Assembly: GCA_963786135.1 (NCBI GenBank)
Contig: CAWAYF010000025.1
Location: 20,572 to 84,571, forward strand
DNA: 64,000 nucleotides
Direction of reading: 5' to 3'
Source of the DNA: an uncultured Verrucomicrobiae bacterium
Lineage (GTDB): Bacteria; Verrucomicrobiota; Verrucomicrobiia; Chthoniobacterales; UBA10450
This document shows, piece after piece, positions 4,502-54,036 of this stretch (positions are counted from its first letter, which is position 1; every line of letters starts with the position of its first letter). Under the pieces are notes generated by a model. It did no database searches. It saw only the letters and a program-made list of their open reading frames with translations, and was not told the origin of the DNA. The translations under genes and the position numbers were made by a program.

Positions 4502-6105
4502 CTGCCCTTAATATAACTCACAACCATCAACGTACCTGGCGGCGGATTCGCCTTGAAGTTCGTATCGAAGTACCATTCTCGCGTGGGCGGAACATAGACG
4601 TTGGCCTTGCCCCATTCACCAATGGATTGCTGGCTCTTGAATAGTTCCACCATGGAACCGTAATAGCTGAGCGTCTGATTGGTCCAGTCTTCAAGGAAAC
4701 GCGGGAAGTTCTCCGCGCCGCCGCTGTAAGACCCATCTCCGCCCACGGTTGCTGTAGGCACGATCCCCGCGACAACCGCCACATTGTAAGTCGTAGGCGA
4801 CGCAGTGGGAACAGTTCCGGAATTCGCATCGCTCCAACTGTTGGATAACAGATTCAGCGCGTCGGCAAGAATCGAGCAAGGTGCTCGGGTATAGCCGGAA
4901 ACGCTAGAACTCGGCGGACTGGACGGATTGATGTAGGTGCCATCTGCATTGAAGTTGGCAGGATTATTCGACGGAACCGTGCTTCCTGTTCCTCCGGTAT
5001 TGAAGTCTCCCTGAACGTAAACCGGATTACTACTTACAACAGTGAGTCCGGAAGTTGGGATCTTGCTCCCATTCTTGAGTCGGATGGCACGCCGACTGGC
5101 TGTCGTGTTATTTGGGTCGTAGACATAAACAATGCCGTTGAAATTGCCTGACTTGTAATTCGGATTGGCGCCGGCGCCGCTCTCTATCGCACTGACATCG
5201 AGTGTGGAAACATGCATCGTGGCGCCTTCGCGGTTATCCTGGATCGTCTGACCCGTGCTAATCGCGCCATTAAACATGCTATACATCCAGTAGTTTGGCG
5301 ATACTAGTGATGGTGCCGCCGTCCCACTAGTCCAAACTGGTGTGAACGCATAGTTGGCTCCGCTCGGATAACCGATGGTGTAGGTGTTGTTCGCGTTAAT
5401 TTGAATAATCACACCGGCCTGGTCCCAGAGTCGCTGACCTGCTAGCGGATCACTATTTCCCGCAACTGGAGGCTGAATCAGCTCAGCATAGCTGTCGTTA
5501 TTCGGATTCGAGTCCGTAGTACTAAAAATCGAGGTCGAATCCAAACCAAAAGGTTGCATTGCCTGGTCGCGAGCGGGCGGGAGGCCGCTCGGATAATTCG
5601 GGGCTGCGGGCGTCTCCGGGTGTTGCCCATCTCCAGGCATAAAGCCGACAAACCAGTCCGATCCATAGGTTACTTTATCGGCAAATGTAAGGGTGTTGTG
5701 ACCAGTGTACAGATCCGAGTTTGTATGCACCCACCCGGTTACGGTGAACAATGGCCCGGGATGGATTTCGAGCGGATCGACATAGAAAATCGCCCAATTC
5801 CACGGCGAGAGCTGCTGCTTCGAGAACACGCGCCGCACTTTGGCTACGACCTCGCGCTGGGTAGAAGATCCGAACGAACTATTTAAGGTTACGTCGGCCG
5901 ACGCGATGTAATTGTAAGTCGCGGACGTAGTGGGTGAAACTGACGATACGTTAGTAGTCAATTGTCCCAGCTGCGCTTCAGGAGTCGCAGCCGCGCTAGC
6001 CACCGCGTTATATTCAGCATCAACTCCAACCACTTTATAATTCGAAATCGTGTAGGTCGCGTCGAACTCATCGTTTGCCGGATCATAGCTCGCCCCTCGC
6101 TTCAC
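4486..6105 (-). CDS. large pilus/pseudopilus-associated protein, possibly continuous with the PilX-like ORF upstream
   Basis: Intact 539-aa Asn/Ser/Thr/Gly-rich ORF with a GTG start and no signal peptide. It overlaps ORF 6083..6406 by 23 nt in another frame. Confidence 0.5.
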   Translation of the reverse strand: MKRGASYDPANDEFDATYTISNYKVVGVDAEYNAVASAAATPEAQLGQLTTNVSSVSPTTSATYNYIASADVTLNSSFGSSTQREVVAKVRRVFSKQQLSPWNWAIFYVDPLEIHPGPLFTVTGWVHTNSDLYTGHNTLTFADKVTYGSDWFVGFMPGDGQHPETPAAPNYPSGLPPARDQAMQPFGLDSTSIFSTTDSNPNNDSYAELIQPPVAGNSDPLAGQRLWDQAGVIIQINANNTYTIGYPSGANYAFTPVWTSGTAAPSLVSPNYWMYSMFNGAISTGQTIQDNREGATMHVSTLDVSAIESGAGANPNYKSGNFNGIVYVYDPNNTTASRRAIRLKNGSKIPTSGLTVVSSNPVYVQGDFNTGGTGSTVPSNNPANFNADGTYINPSSPPSSSVSGYTRAPCSILADALNLLSNSWSDANSGTVPTASPTTYNVAVVAGIVPTATVGGDGSYSGGAENFPRFLEDWTNQTLSYYGSMVELFKSQQSIGEWGKANVYVPPTREWYFDTNFKANPPPGTLMVVSYIKGRWYVL

Positions 6106-6406: not shown

Positions 6407-7252
6407 TGGTAAGTGGTAAGTCGTGTTTTGAAGGGAACCTGGCCGTTGAGCAGGATGTTTGCGGATTTGTAGCCGCGATTGCTGTATTGAGTGTCAGACG
6501 TAGACAGATCGATCGCGGCGACGAAACGGTAATAAAGGGCGCCGGCCGCAGTCGCTGGAGTGCTAAACGGAGTGGAGTTCGTCACATAATTAGCCACAGC
6601 TTTGGTGTTGCCTTTCCACTTCCAATTCAGGTTGTTGCTGGATACAGCGTAGGAACACCGGTCCGTTATGAAGCACACAATATCGCCGCCTGTACTCCCG
6701 GTGCCTTTGATTGCGAGCGGTATTGTGCTCATCGGATAGGTCACCGGTGGAGTCAACGCCGGACCGGATATGTTGCTGAGATTAGAGCGAAAGTCACCCG
6801 AATTGCCGCTGACTGACGTAATGTCGGCTTCGATTTGATAAGCCGGAATGATTAGTCGTTGACCGGCTACTGGGGTAGGTCCCGAAGTCGTGTGTCAGCA
6901 CCAGATGGATCTGAGTGGCGCCCGCGTTTACATCATTCTTGATCTCGTGTGGGCCGCTTGACCATTGTTGAAAGGAGATTCCCTCGGCTGCAGTGGGTGC
7001 CGGCGAAGGATACGCCGTGCCGGTAGCATCAGATAACGCAGGCAGCGAAACGGAGGAGTGCAGGTCTTGAAGCATGTCAACCATCGCCACACGGGCCTGC
7101 TGATGCGCGACGTTGACGGCTGTGTTCTTGGCGCCCAGGACGGTGCTCGTATACAAAATCGAACATAAAACCAAGCCGACCACCCCCATGAGGGCGACGG
7201 TAAACATCAATTCCACAAGTTTGAAACCAGCCGATTGCGAAGAAACTTTCAT
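6403..7252 (-). CDS. prepilin-type N-terminal cleavage/methylation domain protein (pseudopilin), one frame break
   Basis: ORF 6794..7252 begins MKVSSQSAG|FKLVELMFTVALMGVVGLV (G-F-x-L-V-E prepilin motif). A second frame is open from about 6870 down to 6403 (GQRLIIPAYQIEADITSVSG...PVTYPMSTIPLAIKG...), which implies one indel near 6868..6880. Confidence 0.6.
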
Positions 7253-44575: not shown

Positions 44576-46361
44576 TCATTGCTCGGTTTTTCGTTTGTAG
44601 ATAGCTGCGCCGTAGCCGCCAACATCGAGCGGATCATCGCCACCGTACGCATGAAGTTGGTAATCCCGAGTCAGCCACTCAAGAATTTCACGGCCTTTTC
44701 CAGGGGCTTCACCATAACGATCAATTCCATGCGCGCGCAGGTCGCGACTGATAAGAACAACGCGGTCCGGTGGATTAGCCTCGAGTTCACCCGCCATCTC
44801 GGAATTGGATGGAAAAAAGTAGTAGTAACGCACACTGCTCGGAATCCGAGCGAGATAGTTGATGATAGCGCCTTCCGGTAGAACGACGAGGCTCTTGATC
44901 CTGGCGTCCTGCTTCAGAGATGTGGTTGTGCCTTCGACCAGTTCGCCAGTTCCGTCTAGCTGAGGCGGAAAGGTGTAGAAACGATCGATGCCTTCGCCGA
45001 TAGAGTCCGTTTTCAGACGCAGCAATTGTTGCGAGTCCTGCGCGATGTTGATTACGCCCGGAACAAGCAACGCGAGGACGGCGGTCACAACCAGAACACG
45101 TTGACGGGCAGCGAGCCGTAACCACTCCGGTAACTCACTCAGAAGCACGGCAGGAACGATTGAACCTGCGATGGCAGCTTGAAAAAAGCCGTAATGATAA
45201 ATTCGACCGTTCAAAAACATTCTCGCCATCAAGGCCGTTCCGAGGACCGCCAGCAAGGTCGCGGTAATAATCTTACGCCTGTTCCCGGGCACCGATCGCA
45301 AAGACACTATGAAGCGGACCAAGGTGTAAACGACGAGCAGGCCAAGCAAACAACGACCGACCTCCCGCCAATGTACGGCGGTGGATGCGATTGCCCCCAC
45401 GGCACCCGTGAAAACCACGGCCGATCCGATAGTTACTCGATTAGGTGGCAGCTTTCGACCGAGCCAGCCAACCAGAGCAATTGCGCCGATGACAAGGAAG
45501 GCCACCAAAGTAGCAATGAGATGTTGCTTGAGATTATTGCCAGCCTCCGACATGCCGGAGAAGTCGCCCTGTAAGCCAGTGGAATAATTTCCCGCATTCG
45601 CTGCAATAATTTCCCGGTAAGCGCCCGCCGACATGACCAGGGCTTCTTTCACCGGAACAAAAACGGCGAAGTAACTTGTGAAGGCCAGGGTGGGAAGCGC
45701 AGTCCCGACAAGTCCAAGCAGAACAGCACGCCACGAAGGTAGCTTGTGGTATCGCCAGCACAGCACGGCGGACACAATGATCAGAGCTGCTCCGGATAGT
45801 ATGAACTCCGGTTTTAAGACAAAACAAAAACCGTACAACAGGCCGGCGAGAAAAGTCCTGAACGGCGCCGGTTCTTCGATCCAGCCCGACAGCACATAAA
45901 CCATAGCCAGGCTTATCAGCATGCCGTGGGTCGCTTCGTGAGAATAAGGTGTGGCGTAATTGTAGTTGGCGATACGTACAAGTTGGCTAAACCCGAAGAC
46001 CGCGATGAAGGTAGCAGTCGCTGCGAGAGCGCCGGCGAAACCCCAGGCGCGCCGGCAAAGAAGAAAGAACAGCGCCAGGATAGCTGCAAAAATGATCAGG
46101 TTAGCCGTCACCAGGACCATCATGCCCGGTCGAAAGACGGTGAAGAGCATGGCGTTGAAGTATTGTGAGAAAGGGCCGTAAGCCTCTTCAACGTCGCGAT
46201 AGAGAAGAGCACCCTGCGAAAGTCGCCACGGGACTGTACAGCTCTCGGCCAAAGTCGACGAGCGGGTCGGGCCATTTACGCCAGGAGACGGCGAAAAAAT
46301 AAACAAACAGCGCCAACAGGAACACGAGCCCCAGCCATTGCGCGATCTTCAGCAGACGCAT
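44576..46361 (-). CDS. polytopic membrane protein, GT39/ArnT-like glycosyltransferase (tentative), one frame break near the 5' end
   Basis: 576-aa ORF with at least 10 hydrophobic helices and a soluble C-terminal domain. Manual N-terminus MRLLKIAQWLGLVFLLALFVYFFAVSWRKWPDPLVDFGRELY from ATG 46361 joins near 46240. Confidence 0.45.
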
Positions 46362-46376
46362 GGAGAGACTATTTAA

Positions 46377-46560
46377 TCAGGAATCCAGGAATCAGGAACT
46401 CAGGAAAACAGAAAAAAGAATTATCCGTATCCGTCTAAATCCGCGTAATCCGCGGTTAAGAAAATTCGTGCTTTGAAACTCGGTCGCTGCCCGCGCTCCC
46501 TCGTAGCTTTACCTTCTATCTCGGAAATCCCTTTCCTCGATTCTTGCGTTCCTCAGAGAT
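46377..46560. repeat. R3 composite leader repeat, copy b, including four tandem TCAGGAA heptamers
   Basis: TCAGGAA-TCCAGGAA-TCAGGAA-C-TCAGGAA (46377..46406), then ATCCGCGGTTAAGAAAATTCGTGCTTT and TTCCTCAGAGAT, with about 65 nt extra between the boxes. Confidence 0.5.
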
Positions 46561-46573
46561 TTCGGCGCTCGGA

Positions 46574-47370
46574 TCAGTGCCTGTCCGGCTCGGACTTTTC
46601 GAAAAATGACGGATCGATTGGCGGATTGACGTTGATTTCCTTGATCAGCGAACTTTCCAGCAACTTGCTGGTCTTCAAATCGGTTTCCGATCCCGCGAAC
46701 GGAAATTGCACGCCGTTTATTTTTCGAAAATCCCAACTCTTCTGTTCAATCGTCGTTGGAGTCGGGTCGATGTCCACGTGCAACGGGCGAATGTCGCGCC
46801 GCCGCGTGATCAACCAGCTGTTCGGGTCCACATAGAGCGTAGTGCGATAACCATCCTTCAACGTCAGTGGCAGTGCATAGTAGTTGATCCCGTCGATCTT
46901 CTCTCGCCCGACGAGTTCGATCTGATGACCTCGCTGTTTGAGCTCGTGCAGACCGAAAAGTTTTCCGGGAAGCTCGACTCCGTGTTGTAGCGCAGCGGTT
47001 GCTTTGCCGAGGCAGGCTTCGATTCCTTTCCGTTCCACTCCCAGCCGTGCTCTCCGTCAAATGCTTCTGTGAAAACGTGTTTCCCCGCCGCCGAGACGTC
47101 GATCCGCATCCGGCCCGGCCGCGCCGCATAATAAATCCCGTCGGCCTCAAATCCCGGGTCACTGATATGCAGGTCCACTGCGATTGATTGAATCGCCTCG
47201 ATCGCAGCCCGGCCGCCCATCGCCTTGCTATTGCGATCCACAACATCGTCGACCGTGAACGCACGATTGCAGCCGAATAAGGCCACCACCAAGCCGCATC
47301 CGGCGATCAACGAAATCAAATTGGTGGCACATCTTGGAAGCATCCAACCAAGGAGGCCGCCGAAGACCAA
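46574..47370 (-). CDS. hypothetical lipoprotein, one frame break
   Basis: ORF 46864..47370 has a lipobox region (LISLIAGCGLVVALFGCN). The C-terminal half lies in ORF 46574..47038. Confidence 0.5.
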
Positions 47371-47744
47371 ACTTGTCTATCCACCGGGAAATGTCTCATC
47401 CACGCCTGTTCGCCGTCCGTAAAACGCATCGACATAATCCGGACCGTGTTGTCGGAGCGCCAAAACCAGATGCGCATAGCGCTCGGCGACCGCGTTCATG
47501 TCCGGCGCCGACGCTCGACGTGATCAACCCGCAGAGAACGAAAGCTAAGATCGGGCGCATACCGAGGATTACGTCGAGTGCCGCCTAAAACGTCAAATGT
47601 TTAGGTGTGACCCCGGCTTCCGATTCCAAGGAGCGACGGTTGAGTGGAAATCATCGCCCTGCAAATAAAGGGCCTGGCGCCAAAATCAAAATCAGCGATC
47701 AAATGATAAAACGCCCAAGGCAGCCCGAGGGAGGAGCAGAAAAA

Positions 47745-47942
47745 TTAAGAGGCTGCCTGTGGCAGCTTCGTTGTTTCCAGAGAGCCCTTTAGAGTCAACT
47801 TTGCGGCGTGTATCTTTTGCAGCACGTCATCCGGTAATGGTTCCGGTTTCGGTAAGGGCGTGACCTCCGGCAAATTCTGCAAATCTTCCTTGTCTAAATA
47901 GACCACAGAGAACCCGGTTCCATCCTCTGATTTGATTGTCAT
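47745..47942 (-). CDS. small hypothetical protein downstream of the GAF gene
   Basis: 65-aa ORF, 24 nt after the GAF gene stop, with an acidic, Pro-rich middle. No family was recognised. Confidence 0.35.
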   Translation of the reverse strand: MTIKSEDGTGFSVVYLDKEDLQNLPEVTPLPKPEPLPDDVLQKIHAAKLTLKGSLETTKLPQAAS

Positions 47943-47966
47943 TTCTACCTTATTTTACACTCACAT

Positions 47967-48695
47967 TCATTTTACACCATCGAAAAAGCATAACCCGGCT
48001 AGATGATTTGCGTGAGACCGTGCCAGCGCAGCGATCTCCCGTTGATCAAACCTTGTCGCAGTTATCGGAAATTCGCTATCTAAGGCCAATACACCGACGA
48101 CTTTATCTGTTTCCAAAATGGGCACCGCCAATACCGATTCTATTTGAGAGACAAACGGAATCTTCTTTCGATGCACAGTATTGATAGGGCTCTGAAAACG
48201 AACATTGTTCTTGTCGTAAATAATTATATTTTTCTCCGACCAAGCTCTTCCGATAGCGCCCTCGCCCTTCTTGAACTTCATTCTTAGCTCGTCGTTAGAA
48301 AACGCTGAGCCATCAGGCGTCCTAAAATAGTAAATCTGCAGACGCCAAGCATAACGCCACGTTCGTTTTGGCAGGGAAAGATTGGCGCGAATTGGCGGGA
48401 TCGTGGCAGCACCTTTAATTTGCTTGTAGTAGTCGGTAAGCAAACCGCCCAGCTTCAATTCGATCACATCCCGCCTTTGTTCGACTTTACTCCTACCAAC
48501 TGGTTTACGGCCCGTTAAGATCCATTGCTGAATGAGAAGCACCAAGGTTAAGGCAATCAATACCCTTAATCGAGATGACTCACCGATGTAGCTGTTGTCT
48601 TTGAGCCATCCGGTCCAAGCCCACCCCAAAGCGCAAACTACACCTAAAATGACGTTCAACGTGCGCTTCATTAGGGGAAAAAGATTAGCTAACAA
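47967..48695 (-). CDS. two-TM membrane protein with C-terminal GAF-like domain
   Basis: TM helices LNVILGVVCALGWAWTGWL and LRVLIALTLVLLIQQWIL. The GAF-like pattern is KGEGAIGRAWSEKNIIIYD...IESVLAVPILETDKVVGVLALDS. Confidence 0.6.
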   Translation of the reverse strand: MLANLFPLMKRTLNVILGVVCALGWAWTGWLKDNSYIGESSRLRVLIALTLVLLIQQWILTGRKPVGRSKVEQRRDVIELKLGGLLTDYYKQIKGAATIPPIRANLSLPKRTWRYAWRLQIYYFRTPDGSAFSNDELRMKFKKGEGAIGRAWSEKNIIIYDKNNVRFQSPINTVHRKKIPFVSQIESVLAVPILETDKVVGVLALDSEFPITATRFDQREIAALARSHANHLAGLCFFDGVK

Positions 48696-48844
48696 TGCTA
48701 TAGGAAATACATTTTTCGTATCAAGGCGTTTGTTAGGCAGGCTCCTCGAAGATTTAGACTTGACCCTCTATTACGCTGACTGCTGCCGGGGTCATTGACT
48801 TGCAGTTACTTTTCGCGTTATGCCATCTCAATCTAAAGCAAAAC

Positions 48845-48870
48845 AGCCGAGCCCTTGCGAGCTCGGCTGC
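48845..48870 (-). terminator. hairpin downstream of the HEPN gene
   Basis: CAGCCGAGC-loop-GCTCGGCTG. It is a near-copy of the groEL terminator hairpin. Confidence 0.5.
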
Positions 48871-48924
48871 TTGTTAATTGTTGTTTAGGCTCCTTGCCAG
48901 GTCATGCCACGGTTGTGATGGCAC

Positions 48925-49728
48925 TCATTTTTTTGGCAATACGGTATAGAAAAAACTGACATCAGCATCGCAATCCGATTGAGCGTGATGTTGACGCTCG
49001 CTCTTGATCTGAACTTCAATCCGAAATGTTTCACTAATGTCTTTGTCGGAAAGAACAACGGAAAAAGTGTTATCGTCCTGCCATTTTCCCTCGCGCCCAC
49101 CGCTAGTTATCAATCGAAGAGACTTAAGTGGCTCACCCATTGGGTCGCTCGCCGTAACCACAAACTCGACAAGATCTCCAGAGCGCAGGATTTGCTTTGT
49201 CACGATTGCCCGCAGTCGGGAGGAGTCAGGCGTCCATATATTGCCGATGCTGTCTCGGGCACTTTCAATTCTCGGAAAGTAATCCTCCTTCGTTTCAAGC
49301 TTGCTTCGATATCGGATCAATCGAGTCCGTATCTCGCCCGCGATACCTGTCGCGAGATGCTTTTGATGAGGCAATAACTCCCGGCGGTGTGCCTCCGGAT
49401 CCCGCAACTTTTCCAGTTCGTCTAAATACACGCGCATTGTTTTTAAGTCCCCGAGAGCATCCGTGAACTTGTCCCAGTGTTTTTCCAGAATTGTCCGAAT
49501 GTCGAAAAAGTCGGCGTAGTAGATCAGTCGCGCTTCGACTACGCCGCCTTTCTGACGTTTTGCCTCAATGTCCTTGCGTTCAGTCCATTTCAGGACTCGC
49601 TCCGGAGACACCCCGCATTTCGTCGGCCAATCTTCACCGAGAGACTTTGTCAACATCGTGGCGATGAAATCTCGCAACGCGTTTTCGGTATCCTTGAGAA
49701 CTTGGGTGATGTCGATCTGCATGTGCAA
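48925..49728 (-). CDS. Swt1-like HEPN-domain protein with a C-terminal beta-rich domain
   Basis: Intact 267 aa. The N-terminal pattern is LRDFI...GEDW...W..RK...RLIYYADFFDIRTIL..HWDKF, with the HEPN Rx4H motif R-DPEA-H encoded at 49387..49404. Confidence 0.65.
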   Translation of the reverse strand: MHMQIDITQVLKDTENALRDFIATMLTKSLGEDWPTKCGVSPERVLKWTERKDIEAKRQKGGVVEARLIYYADFFDIRTILEKHWDKFTDALGDLKTMRVYLDELEKLRDPEAHRRELLPHQKHLATGIAGEIRTRLIRYRSKLETKEDYFPRIESARDSIGNIWTPDSSRLRAIVTKQILRSGDLVEFVVTASDPMGEPLKSLRLITSGGREGKWQDDNTFSVVLSDKDISETFRIEVQIKSERQHHAQSDCDADVSFFYTVLPKK

Positions 49729-49748
49729 CGATCTTCTTTAAAACAAAA

Positions 49749-49774
49749 CAGCCGGAGCCTTTCGACTCCGGCTG
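49749..49774 (-). terminator. groEL terminator hairpin
   Basis: CAGCCGGAG-CCTTTCGA-CTCCGGCTG, 26 nt downstream of the groEL stop. On the coding strand it is followed by a T-rich run (TTTTGTTTT). Confidence 0.65.
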
Positions 49775-49799
49775 TTTGTAATTCATTGTTTCGTTCGGC

Positions 49800-51449
<1,650 letters not shown>

Positions 51450-51497
51450 TTAGTTGAGTTGAGTTGAGGAATTAGATTGAAGATCAGAACCTGGCAT

Positions 51498-51797
51498 TCA
51501 GTCCACGATGATGCCGAGGATGTCGTCCTCGCGCATGATCAGGAATTGTTCGCCGTCGATTTTGATTTCGGTGCCGCCGTATTTCGAAATGAGCACCTTG
51601 TCGCCTTTCTTCACGGTGAAATCGACTTTCTTGCCCTCTTCGTTCACCTTACCGGTGCCGAGAGCGACCACTTTGCCTTCCTGCGGTTTTTCTTTCGCAG
51701 TGTCGGGAATGATGATCCCGCCTTTTTTTGTTTCCTGCTCTTCGATCGGCTGCACCAGCACCCGATCGCCGAGCGGTTTTACGTTAACGCTTGCCAT
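51498..51797 (-). CDS. groES: co-chaperonin GroES
   Basis: Intact 99 aa: [44 protein letters not shown]. Confidence 0.95.
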
Positions 51798-51924
51798 AAG
51801 TTAGTTTTTTCTTCTGTTGTTTTTGTTTTTGGGTTGAGCCGGCGACTCCGAAAACTTTCGGGGCCACCGGCAAATTGTTTCTTTAGTTAATCTTCTTCAC
51901 GAATTTCGCGTCACACGTCACTCG

Positions 51925-54036
<2,112 letters not shown>

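Follow-up and report, generated by a model that had tools for sequence, protein, structure and literature searches.

Two independent accessory units, a HEPN-Ig gene and a 2TM-GAF gene pair, at a probable variable hotspot downstream of groESL in an uncultured Verrucomicrobiae bacterium

In the genome of an uncultured Verrucomicrobiae bacterium (GenBank assembly GCA_963786135.1, contig CAWAYF010000025.1), the groESL operon is followed by three small genes of low G+C content, and the question that this locus raises is whether they form one defence system. The first encodes a HEPN domain of the Swt1 type joined to an immunoglobulin (Ig)-like domain (HEPN-Ig), the second a protein with two transmembrane (TM) helices and a GAF domain (2TM-GAF), and the third a protein of 65 amino acids (aa). 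Positions given below refer to the stretch of 64,000 nucleotides (nt) that was analysed as a whole, hereafter the window. The first-pass annotation, which was made from the sequence alone, had proposed a two- or three-gene defence module. Our analysis shows instead that the HEPN gene (unit 1) and the GAF gene, the latter together with the small open reading frame (ORF; unit 2), are two independent accessory units, which probably accumulated one beside the other in a variable hotspot that directly follows the groESL operon on its 3' side.

The separation of the two units was established by their distribution. When 66 loci were scanned with profile hidden Markov models, 50 proved to carry the HEPN gene and 16 the GAF gene, and none carried both. 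Moreover, a tblastn search found no GAF or small-ORF relative within 6 kb of the HEPN gene at 45 loci, and no HEPN gene was present at three independent loci carrying the GAF gene and the small ORF. The proposed module thus fails, because homologues of its two larger genes do not co-localise. (Genes of 263, 255 and 204 aa beside GAF homologues were also tested as diverged HEPN genes, and they are not.) Within the window, a strong terminator lies between the two units, as does a spacer of 253 nt that contains a promoter-like site, and in close relatives each unit stands without the other at the same site. A single defence system, with the GAF protein as signal sensor and the HEPN protein as RNase effector, could draw on the adjacency of the three genes, their common strand and their common low G+C content; set against the locus counts, the intervening signals and the allelic states of the relatives, it is very improbable. 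The features concerned are, in the direction of transcription:

49739 to 49791, minus strand: intrinsic terminator of groEL and copy 1 of a 53-nt direct repeat (hairpin, RNA fold).
48925 to 49722, minus strand: unit 1, HEPN-Ig gene, 265 aa, cytoplasmic (Pfam, homologues, AlphaFold2 model).
49387 to 49404, minus strand: Rx4H motif (R-DPEA-H) of the HEPN domain, predicted catalytic (alignment).
48937 to 49272, minus strand: Ig/PKD-like beta-sandwich of the HEPN protein (AlphaFold2 model, Foldseek).
48834 to 48886, minus strand: second copy (copy 2) of the 53-nt repeat, which forms a terminator hairpin 3' of the HEPN gene and past which the cargo of relatives differs (repeat search, RNA fold).
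48695 to 48724, minus strand: sigma-70-like promoter candidate TTGATA-18-TAGCAT, upstream of the GAF gene (consensus match only).
47967 to 48671, minus strand: unit 2, first gene, 2TM-GAF protein, 234 aa, isoelectric point (pI) 10.1 (Pfam GAF, hydropathy).
47745 to 47942, minus strand: unit 2, second gene, soluble 65-aa protein, pI 4.9 (homologous small ORFs in other loci).

An ORF check located the three intact minus-strand genes between groEL and a lipoprotein-like gene, at the coordinates first assigned to them (47745-49728). The G+C content of this region is 0.479, versus a mean of 0.553 for the window; as stretches of the same size have a standard deviation of 0.020, this corresponds to a z of about -3.7, and no other 2-kb stretch within the 64 kb is lower, so the by-eye impression of an AT-richer segment was correct. 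At third codon positions, the G+C content is 0.51-0.56 for the three-gene region, 0.70-0.74 for groES, groEL and the lipoprotein-like ORF, and 0.59-0.62 for the next two genes downstream. These values support a compositionally distinct accessory insertion, whose flanks are ordinary chromosomal genes (groES/groEL, dnaK and a gene of the desuccinylase/aspartoacylase family). No tRNA lies within ~8 kb of the insertion, and an Rfam scan of 46000-52000 returned nothing, AbiF-type RNA included. The ORFs of 267 and 242 aa named in the first-pass annotation exist, but alignments with homologues move their starts to the ATG at 49722 (265 aa) and the ATG at 48671 (234 aa), respectively; all three ORFs are full length compared with homologues. 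The described layout, between a lipoprotein gene and the groEL terminator, also stands, except that the lipoprotein-like gene (46574-47370, minus strand) is split across two overlapping frames (ORFs of 168 and 154 aa), likely by an indel. On the other side, dnaK (51914-53961, minus strand) has about four frame changes, either assembly indel errors or the mark of a pseudogene, the first of them being a C missing from a CC run near 52975; groES and groEL are intact beside this broken gene.

The site itself was examined for repeats and transcription signals. The groEL terminator is a hairpin of 14 pairs followed by a T-run (RNA fold -27.7 kcal/mol, z -6.7), and a second hairpin follows the HEPN gene (-29.5 kcal/mol, z -4.1). 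Both belong to the 53-nt direct repeat that brackets the HEPN gene, whose copies are 75% identical to each other and are the only two in the 64 kb. The repeat was considered as an attC/integron site and as a dispersed repeat family, and both were rejected; the repeat is a perfect GC-rich terminator stem-loop with the attC boxes absent and only 2 copies. The HEPN ATG lies just 23 nt past the groEL terminator, and because of this the gene appears to be promoterless; its transcription in the window would then proceed by read-through of the groEL terminator. The candidate site at 48695-48724 is the only sigma-70-like one in 47300-50000, and the same hexamers occur upstream of the GAF gene in locus L055. 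Unit 2 is arranged as a conserved two-gene operon with its own promoter-like site.

Comparison with close relatives revealed three allelic states at this site. Besides that of the window, locus L052 (82% DNA identity) has groEL, the terminator and the HEPN gene, after which the sequences diverge inside the second repeat copy and a reverse transcriptase gene follows on the opposite strand, with no GAF gene. In the third state, found in two samples (L055 and L057, 86-91% identical), groEL is followed by one repeat copy, an opposite-strand gene of 288 aa, and the GAF gene with the small ORF, with no HEPN gene; the single post-groEL repeat copy of these loci is 98% identical to copy 2 of the window. 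The reverse transcriptase (L052:1155-2438, minus strand) matches Pfam RVT_1 and the PADLOC models Drt6/Drt4 of defence-associated reverse transcriptases (DRT) at 1e-119 to 1e-123 (best 3.8e-123), which marks the groEL-downstream site as a defence hotspot, and in this respect the defence-type setting suspected at first was borne out. The 288-aa gene (L055:299-1165, minus strand) had no Pfam or PADLOC match; a stretch "LVECK" in its product might be a PD-(D/E)xK nuclease motif. The cargo that appears to be shuffled at one post-groEL position, as read from these sequences, amounts to at least four units: the HEPN gene, DRT, the gene of 288 aa and the GAF pair. The same comparison bears on whether the low G+C content and the odd genes reflect an assembly or binning error, for example a chimeric contig. 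The indel-type defects nearby (the frame changes of dnaK and the split lipoprotein-like gene) would fit such an error; given that the groEL-HEPN and groEL-repeat-GAF junctions are seen independently in other samples (L052, L055, L057), and that the three ORFs are full length against their homologues, we consider its probability negligible.

The HEPN-Ig protein consists of an N-terminal domain of the Swt1/Abi2 clade (approximately residues 1-150) and a C-terminal sandwich (approximately residues 153-264). Pfam HEPN_Swt1 (PF18731) matched residues 10-118 at 32.3 bits (gathering cut-off 27.5), and homologues carry PF18731 as an existing annotation and the NCBI name "Swt1 family HEPN domain-containing protein". 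The arginine and histidine of the Rx4H motif, numbered R109 and H114 at first, lie at 49387-49404 and are R107 and H112 in the 265-aa protein. The motif is kept in 30 of 30 aligned sequences, and in a larger alignment of 117 homologues the arginine is found in 116 and the histidine in all 117. By model and motif, the N-terminal domain is thus assigned to the Swt1-like HEPN family, as the first-pass annotation had recognised, and the motif is conserved across the family. The C-terminal half had been called beta-rich and unassigned; it is indeed beta-rich and can now be modelled, as the AlphaFold2 prediction (mean predicted local distance difference test, pLDDT, 82.5) is all-helical for residues 7-150 and a seven-strand Ig/PKD-like beta-sandwich for residues 153-264. 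Foldseek searches of the PDB and of viral models gave generic Ig/PKD/Fn3/Hoc-like matches for the sandwich only; this domain dominates the matches, and no HEPN structure is among them. A sequence search of the PDB with HEPN-Ig returned no solved relative. The two halves evolve differently, with a mean pairwise identity, across the 117 homologues, of 71% for the HEPN module versus 42% for the Ig-like domain.

The family is widespread. We obtained 684 full-length HEPN homologues (clusters at 90% identity), which are 55-65% identical across phyla, the nearest ones being from Verrucomicrobiota. A scan of one genome per species yielded 45 HEPN loci in at least 13 phyla, including Methanocellales archaea, when an alignment was used as the query; with a single protein as the query it yielded none. 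More distant relatives (29-33% identity) are found on actinobacterial megaplasmids of Streptomyces, Rhodococcus and Gordonia, one of them annotated as an immunoglobulin domain-containing protein. The spread is patchy, as expected under horizontal gene transfer, and without synteny: in an all-against-all clustering, the largest neighbour cluster spans 3 of 44 HEPN loci, so there is no recurring neighbour, and only in this lineage does the gene follow groESL. Scattered among the neighbours are type IIG restriction-modification, methyltransferase, PDC-S20/S64, SoFic, PIN, Fic and transposase genes. As an example, in locus L053 the HEPN gene lies 25 nt after a methyltransferase-Mrr fusion, and a PDC-S60-like gene is also adjacent.

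Repeats flanking the HEPN gene were sought at 32 loci, the window and 31 others. Clear direct repeats of 44-74 nt bracket the gene in four of them, namely the window, L009, L017 and L018, and a further locus, L036, scored high in the test (z 10.9), yet no flanking repeat family was recovered there. In L009, from a Chthoniobacterales metagenome-assembled genome (MAG), the repeat has 74 nt and 91% identity (5777-5850 and 6833-6906), and its second copy folds as a long imperfect palindrome with a 12-bp closing stem. In L017 the gene is bracketed by a 51-nt direct repeat. In the same locus (L017:4074-7640), a 45-nt motif (TTGGAATTG...CTTGGTTTCGATAAG) stands 5' of each of four same-strand gene units, which include HEPN-Ig and a Phd/Doc-like pair of a 72-aa gene and Fic/Doc; the motif is a repeated promoter or recombination site. 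The clearest organisation is that of L018 (325-4520), on a 4.5-kb contig of a MAG labelled Bacillota, where five repeats of ~165-170 nt start with GCCTAAC (RYYYAAC), end with GTTAGGC (GTTRRRY) and contain inner complementary boxes. They separate same-strand ORFs, including HEPN-Ig, and the next cassette encodes a Schlafen/AlbA_2 protein; no integrase was found on this contig. With attC sites defined as imperfect hairpins of the form RYYYAAC ... GTTRRRY at the 3' end of an ORF and within an array, L018 is classified from its sequence as an integron-type cassette array or a cluster of attC sites lacking integrases (CALIN), in which HEPN-Ig is an attC-bounded cassette.

We lean, with modest confidence, towards reading unit 1 as a HEPN RNase that serves as a toxin or as an effector of abortive infection, with its variable Ig-like domain as the means of regulation. 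This assignment follows from the intact, invariant motif and the pattern of a conserved effector with a variable accessory part, and also from the cassette-like mobility and the precedent of validated single-gene HEPN defences, namely HEC-08 and an integron cassette with HEPN-AbiU2. The protein would be self-contained and, if it behaves like other HEPN RNases, active as a dimer, with the Ig-like domain as its regulatory or sensing part, and the gene would move as a promoterless single-gene cassette of ~1 kb. Several points weigh against such a role. The Ig-like fold is generic, the 71% identity of the HEPN module across phyla is unusually high for an arms-race gene, PADLOC matches no more than the HEPN domain, and this to a single gene of a candidate system that is unpublished, and the flanking repeat of the window is a duplicated terminator, not an attC site. 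In addition, the neighbours of the homologues are mostly housekeeping genes, so that a defence-island signal is not clear, and the family is absent from searches of IMG/VR and GenBank phages. Some of these points would fit a cellular RNA-processing or stress RNase, which a conserved RNA target would keep under purifying selection and whose place after groESL might tie it to heat shock; the strong conservation, the housekeeping neighbours, the absence from phage collections and the lack of an antitoxin-like partner for HEPN-Ig are all as such an enzyme would have them. A cellular housekeeping role is, however, difficult to reconcile with a patchy distribution without synteny, with the presence or absence of the gene at one site among close relatives, with copies in an attC cassette array and on megaplasmids, with a G+C content atypical for the window, and with a post-groESL position limited to this lineage, and we regard it as unlikely.

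Comparison with known HEPN systems places unit 1 among them without identity to any. The architectures described for Swt1-like HEPN proteins in the available part of the published survey are HEPN with AAA+ (Ava_2192) in restriction-modification operons, TM fusions and giant helicase fusions (PMC3710099). HEPN-Ig shares with this Swt1-like/Abi2 clade a model match above the cut-off and an intact Rx4H, as in what the survey calls "catalytically active bacterial versions", whereas a solitary HEPN domain with an Ig-like sandwich is not among the Swt1-family architectures that this part of the survey describes; eukaryotic Swt1 itself differs in having a PIN domain and an inactive HEPN dyad. HEC-08 is a validated single-gene HEPN defence whose function requires the histidine of Rx4-6H (10.1101/2024.01.29.577857). 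The likeness is one of architecture only, a single polypeptide whose HEPN domain is N-terminal and whose accessory domain is C-terminal, since HEC-08, which is embedded within Hma systems, combines a HEPN domain of the DUF3644 type with zinc-ribbon-like domains at its C-terminus, whereas HEPN-Ig has a Swt1-type HEPN, an Ig-like C-terminal domain and no host system. Of the PADLOC models, those of PDC-M34B match the HEPN part only (1.4e-13, model positions 64-174 of 192). PDC-M34 is an unpublished, unvalidated candidate system of two genes (PMC11811056); no gene of the window matches PDC-M34A, so that the window lacks one of the two genes required. In HEPN-MNT (HepT/MntA) systems the toxin is likewise a HEPN RNase with an Rx4H motif, but the window genes contain no nucleotidyltransferase domain and the HEPN family is also different; among 148 proteins neighbouring HEPN genes, nucleotidyltransferases do not figure in the most frequent Pfam families. 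From CBASS, Pycsar and Thoeris the locus differs in that the window has no cyclase or synthase gene, nor was one called beside GAF genes at the further loci that were inspected. The absence of cyclase and MNT partners reported at first thus holds. Finally, integron cassettes encoding phage defence are known as BRiCs (10.1101/2024.07.02.601719), and a cassette with HEPN-AbiU2 has been described (10.64898/2026.03.17.712381). HEPN-Ig resembles these as a compact, apparently promoterless single gene, and its L018 copy lies between attC-like sites in the five-site array; the window differs, having no attC site, integrase or array.

Turning to unit 2, the GAF assignment was supported by Pfam (PF01590, 29.7 bits, cut-off 22.4), and hydropathy analysis indicated two N-terminal hydrophobic helices (approximately residues 5-23 and 35-53), followed by a helical linker and the C-terminal GAF domain, in agreement with the 2-TM GAF protein first described. 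A profile of 50 family sequences matches the solved GAF domains 4g3k (3.6e-5) and 3o5y (1.7e-4). A word-indexed search recovered 6 relatives, and HMMER against 1.84 billion representatives (clusters at 50% identity) retrieved 363 family members, 113 of them below 1e-10; the top-ranked full-length matches are mostly of ~230-280 aa with an unchanged architecture. In metagenomes, the GAF scan gave one low-quality contig (L056) and one fragment. L056, with its two inverted, frameshifted GAF copies, probably arose in assembly as a hairpin or chimera and is not counted as evidence.

The 65-aa ORF begins 24 nt past the GAF stop, as had been noted, and homologues accompany GAF genes elsewhere. At three independent GAF loci, an ORF of 60-64 aa begins 21-23 nt later and is 49-56% identical to that of the window, and homologous small ORFs of 60-68 aa are located 3' of the GAF gene in L001, L003, L004, L055 and L059. 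More generally, each of 10 independent loci examined has a small ORF of 49-80 aa at -4 to +24 nt on the 3' side of the GAF gene. Neither the 65-aa ORF nor its homologues have a Pfam match. On the evidence of sequence conservation, the ORF is a real gene and forms a real conserved pair with the GAF gene. In 7 of 9 sequenced pairs, a basic GAF protein (pI 9.3-10.1) is combined with an acidic small protein (pI 4.7-6.2). Among the genomic contexts, a Leptospira interrogans plasmid carries the pair near an MNT/HepT pair and IS481, and further neighbours are a PDC-S31/DUF2971 gene, an HNH gene and IS1595. In two loci (the P0199 contig, JGI 3300072015, and L003:654-1277) the pair is adjoined by genes of the NT5C family, one of which is a fusion of NT5C and dCMP deaminase that overlaps the small-ORF stop by 4 nt; these neighbours may indicate a link to nucleotide metabolism or depletion, or may be a coincidence. 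In a distant member, L060:3225-6612, the pair ends a same-strand cluster of five genes (151, 152, 477, 242 and 75 aa), whose three upstream genes have no Pfam matches.

Based on the analogy with toxFtsL(D9):PanA, we tentatively propose that unit 2 could work in the manner of a toxin-antitoxin pair, the small acidic protein holding a membrane-acting GAF protein in check. In Gelidibacter mesophilus, toxFtsL(D9):PanA is a validated TM and GAF toxin neutralised by a small antitoxin (PMC10440598). The likeness concerns architecture only, namely a protein of similar size (281 aa) with a membrane-anchored helical region and a GAF domain beside a small neutralising protein. The two differ in that the antitoxin there has a Panacea domain, while the small ORF here has no Pfam match, and in the FtsL-like helix of toxFtsL versus the two TM helices here. 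Certain results speak against the proposal for unit 2. The resemblance of the GAF protein to toxFtsL is one of architecture, the arguments for a toxin-antitoxin relation are gene order, size and charge only, and the charge pattern is not seen in the two most distant pairs. Moreover, the AlphaFold2 model of the GAF protein is poor (pLDDT 55), the PADLOC scan, which had been advised at the outset and which matched the HEPN part, has no model matching the GAF protein or the small ORF, and the GAF family was not found in IMG/VR or in GenBank phages. The pair may then be a non-toxic membrane sensing or regulatory pair, for instance a ligand sensor that sequesters or releases its partner. Sensing is the usual role of GAF domains, an enzymatic output domain is absent, and at some loci the surrounding genes are ordinary metabolic ones; the missing PADLOC match fits as well. 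Considering, however, that the family is rare, patchy and accessory, with the plasmid copy beside the MNT/HepT pair and IS481, that the pair is present or absent at a hotspot which also takes DRT, that its tight or overlapping spacing and basic/acidic charge pattern are typical of type II toxin-antitoxin pairs, and that a TM-GAF toxin has a precedent (PMC10440598), a purely sensory pair seems to us somewhat unlikely.

A stronger form of the two proposals takes both units as new, self-contained immune or toxin modules. HEPN-Ig would then be a widespread single-protein abortive-infection RNase whose fast-evolving cytoplasmic Ig-like domain recognises a phage protein; it would have spread as a promoterless cassette, in some lineages through integron attC sites, and by groESL read-through its level would here rise whenever the chaperonin operon is induced by infection or heat shock. 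The 2TM-GAF protein and its small acidic partner would constitute a new ligand-gated membrane toxin-antitoxin family. We consider it doubtful that all of this holds together.

Two accessory units that probably accumulated at one site remain the preferred reading, and for experiments the units are therefore HEPN-Ig alone and the GAF gene together with the small ORF, rather than all three genes. Neither family has been characterised before, yet both fit known paradigms, and as far as their sequences indicate, both are plausible toxin or defence cassettes stacked in a hotspot. With its at least four alternative cargos in close relatives, the 3' flank of groESL is a compact natural example of a defence-gene hotspot. 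If validated, the 2TM-GAF pair would broaden what is so far a single known TM-GAF toxin, toxFtsL, into a family of 363 clusters with a new type of small partner. HEPN-Ig, if validated, would add a very widespread single-gene RNase system of bacteria and archaea (684 clusters at 90% identity), in which the effector is unusually conserved and the putative sensor domain variable, and would link chromosomal hotspots with integron cassettes.

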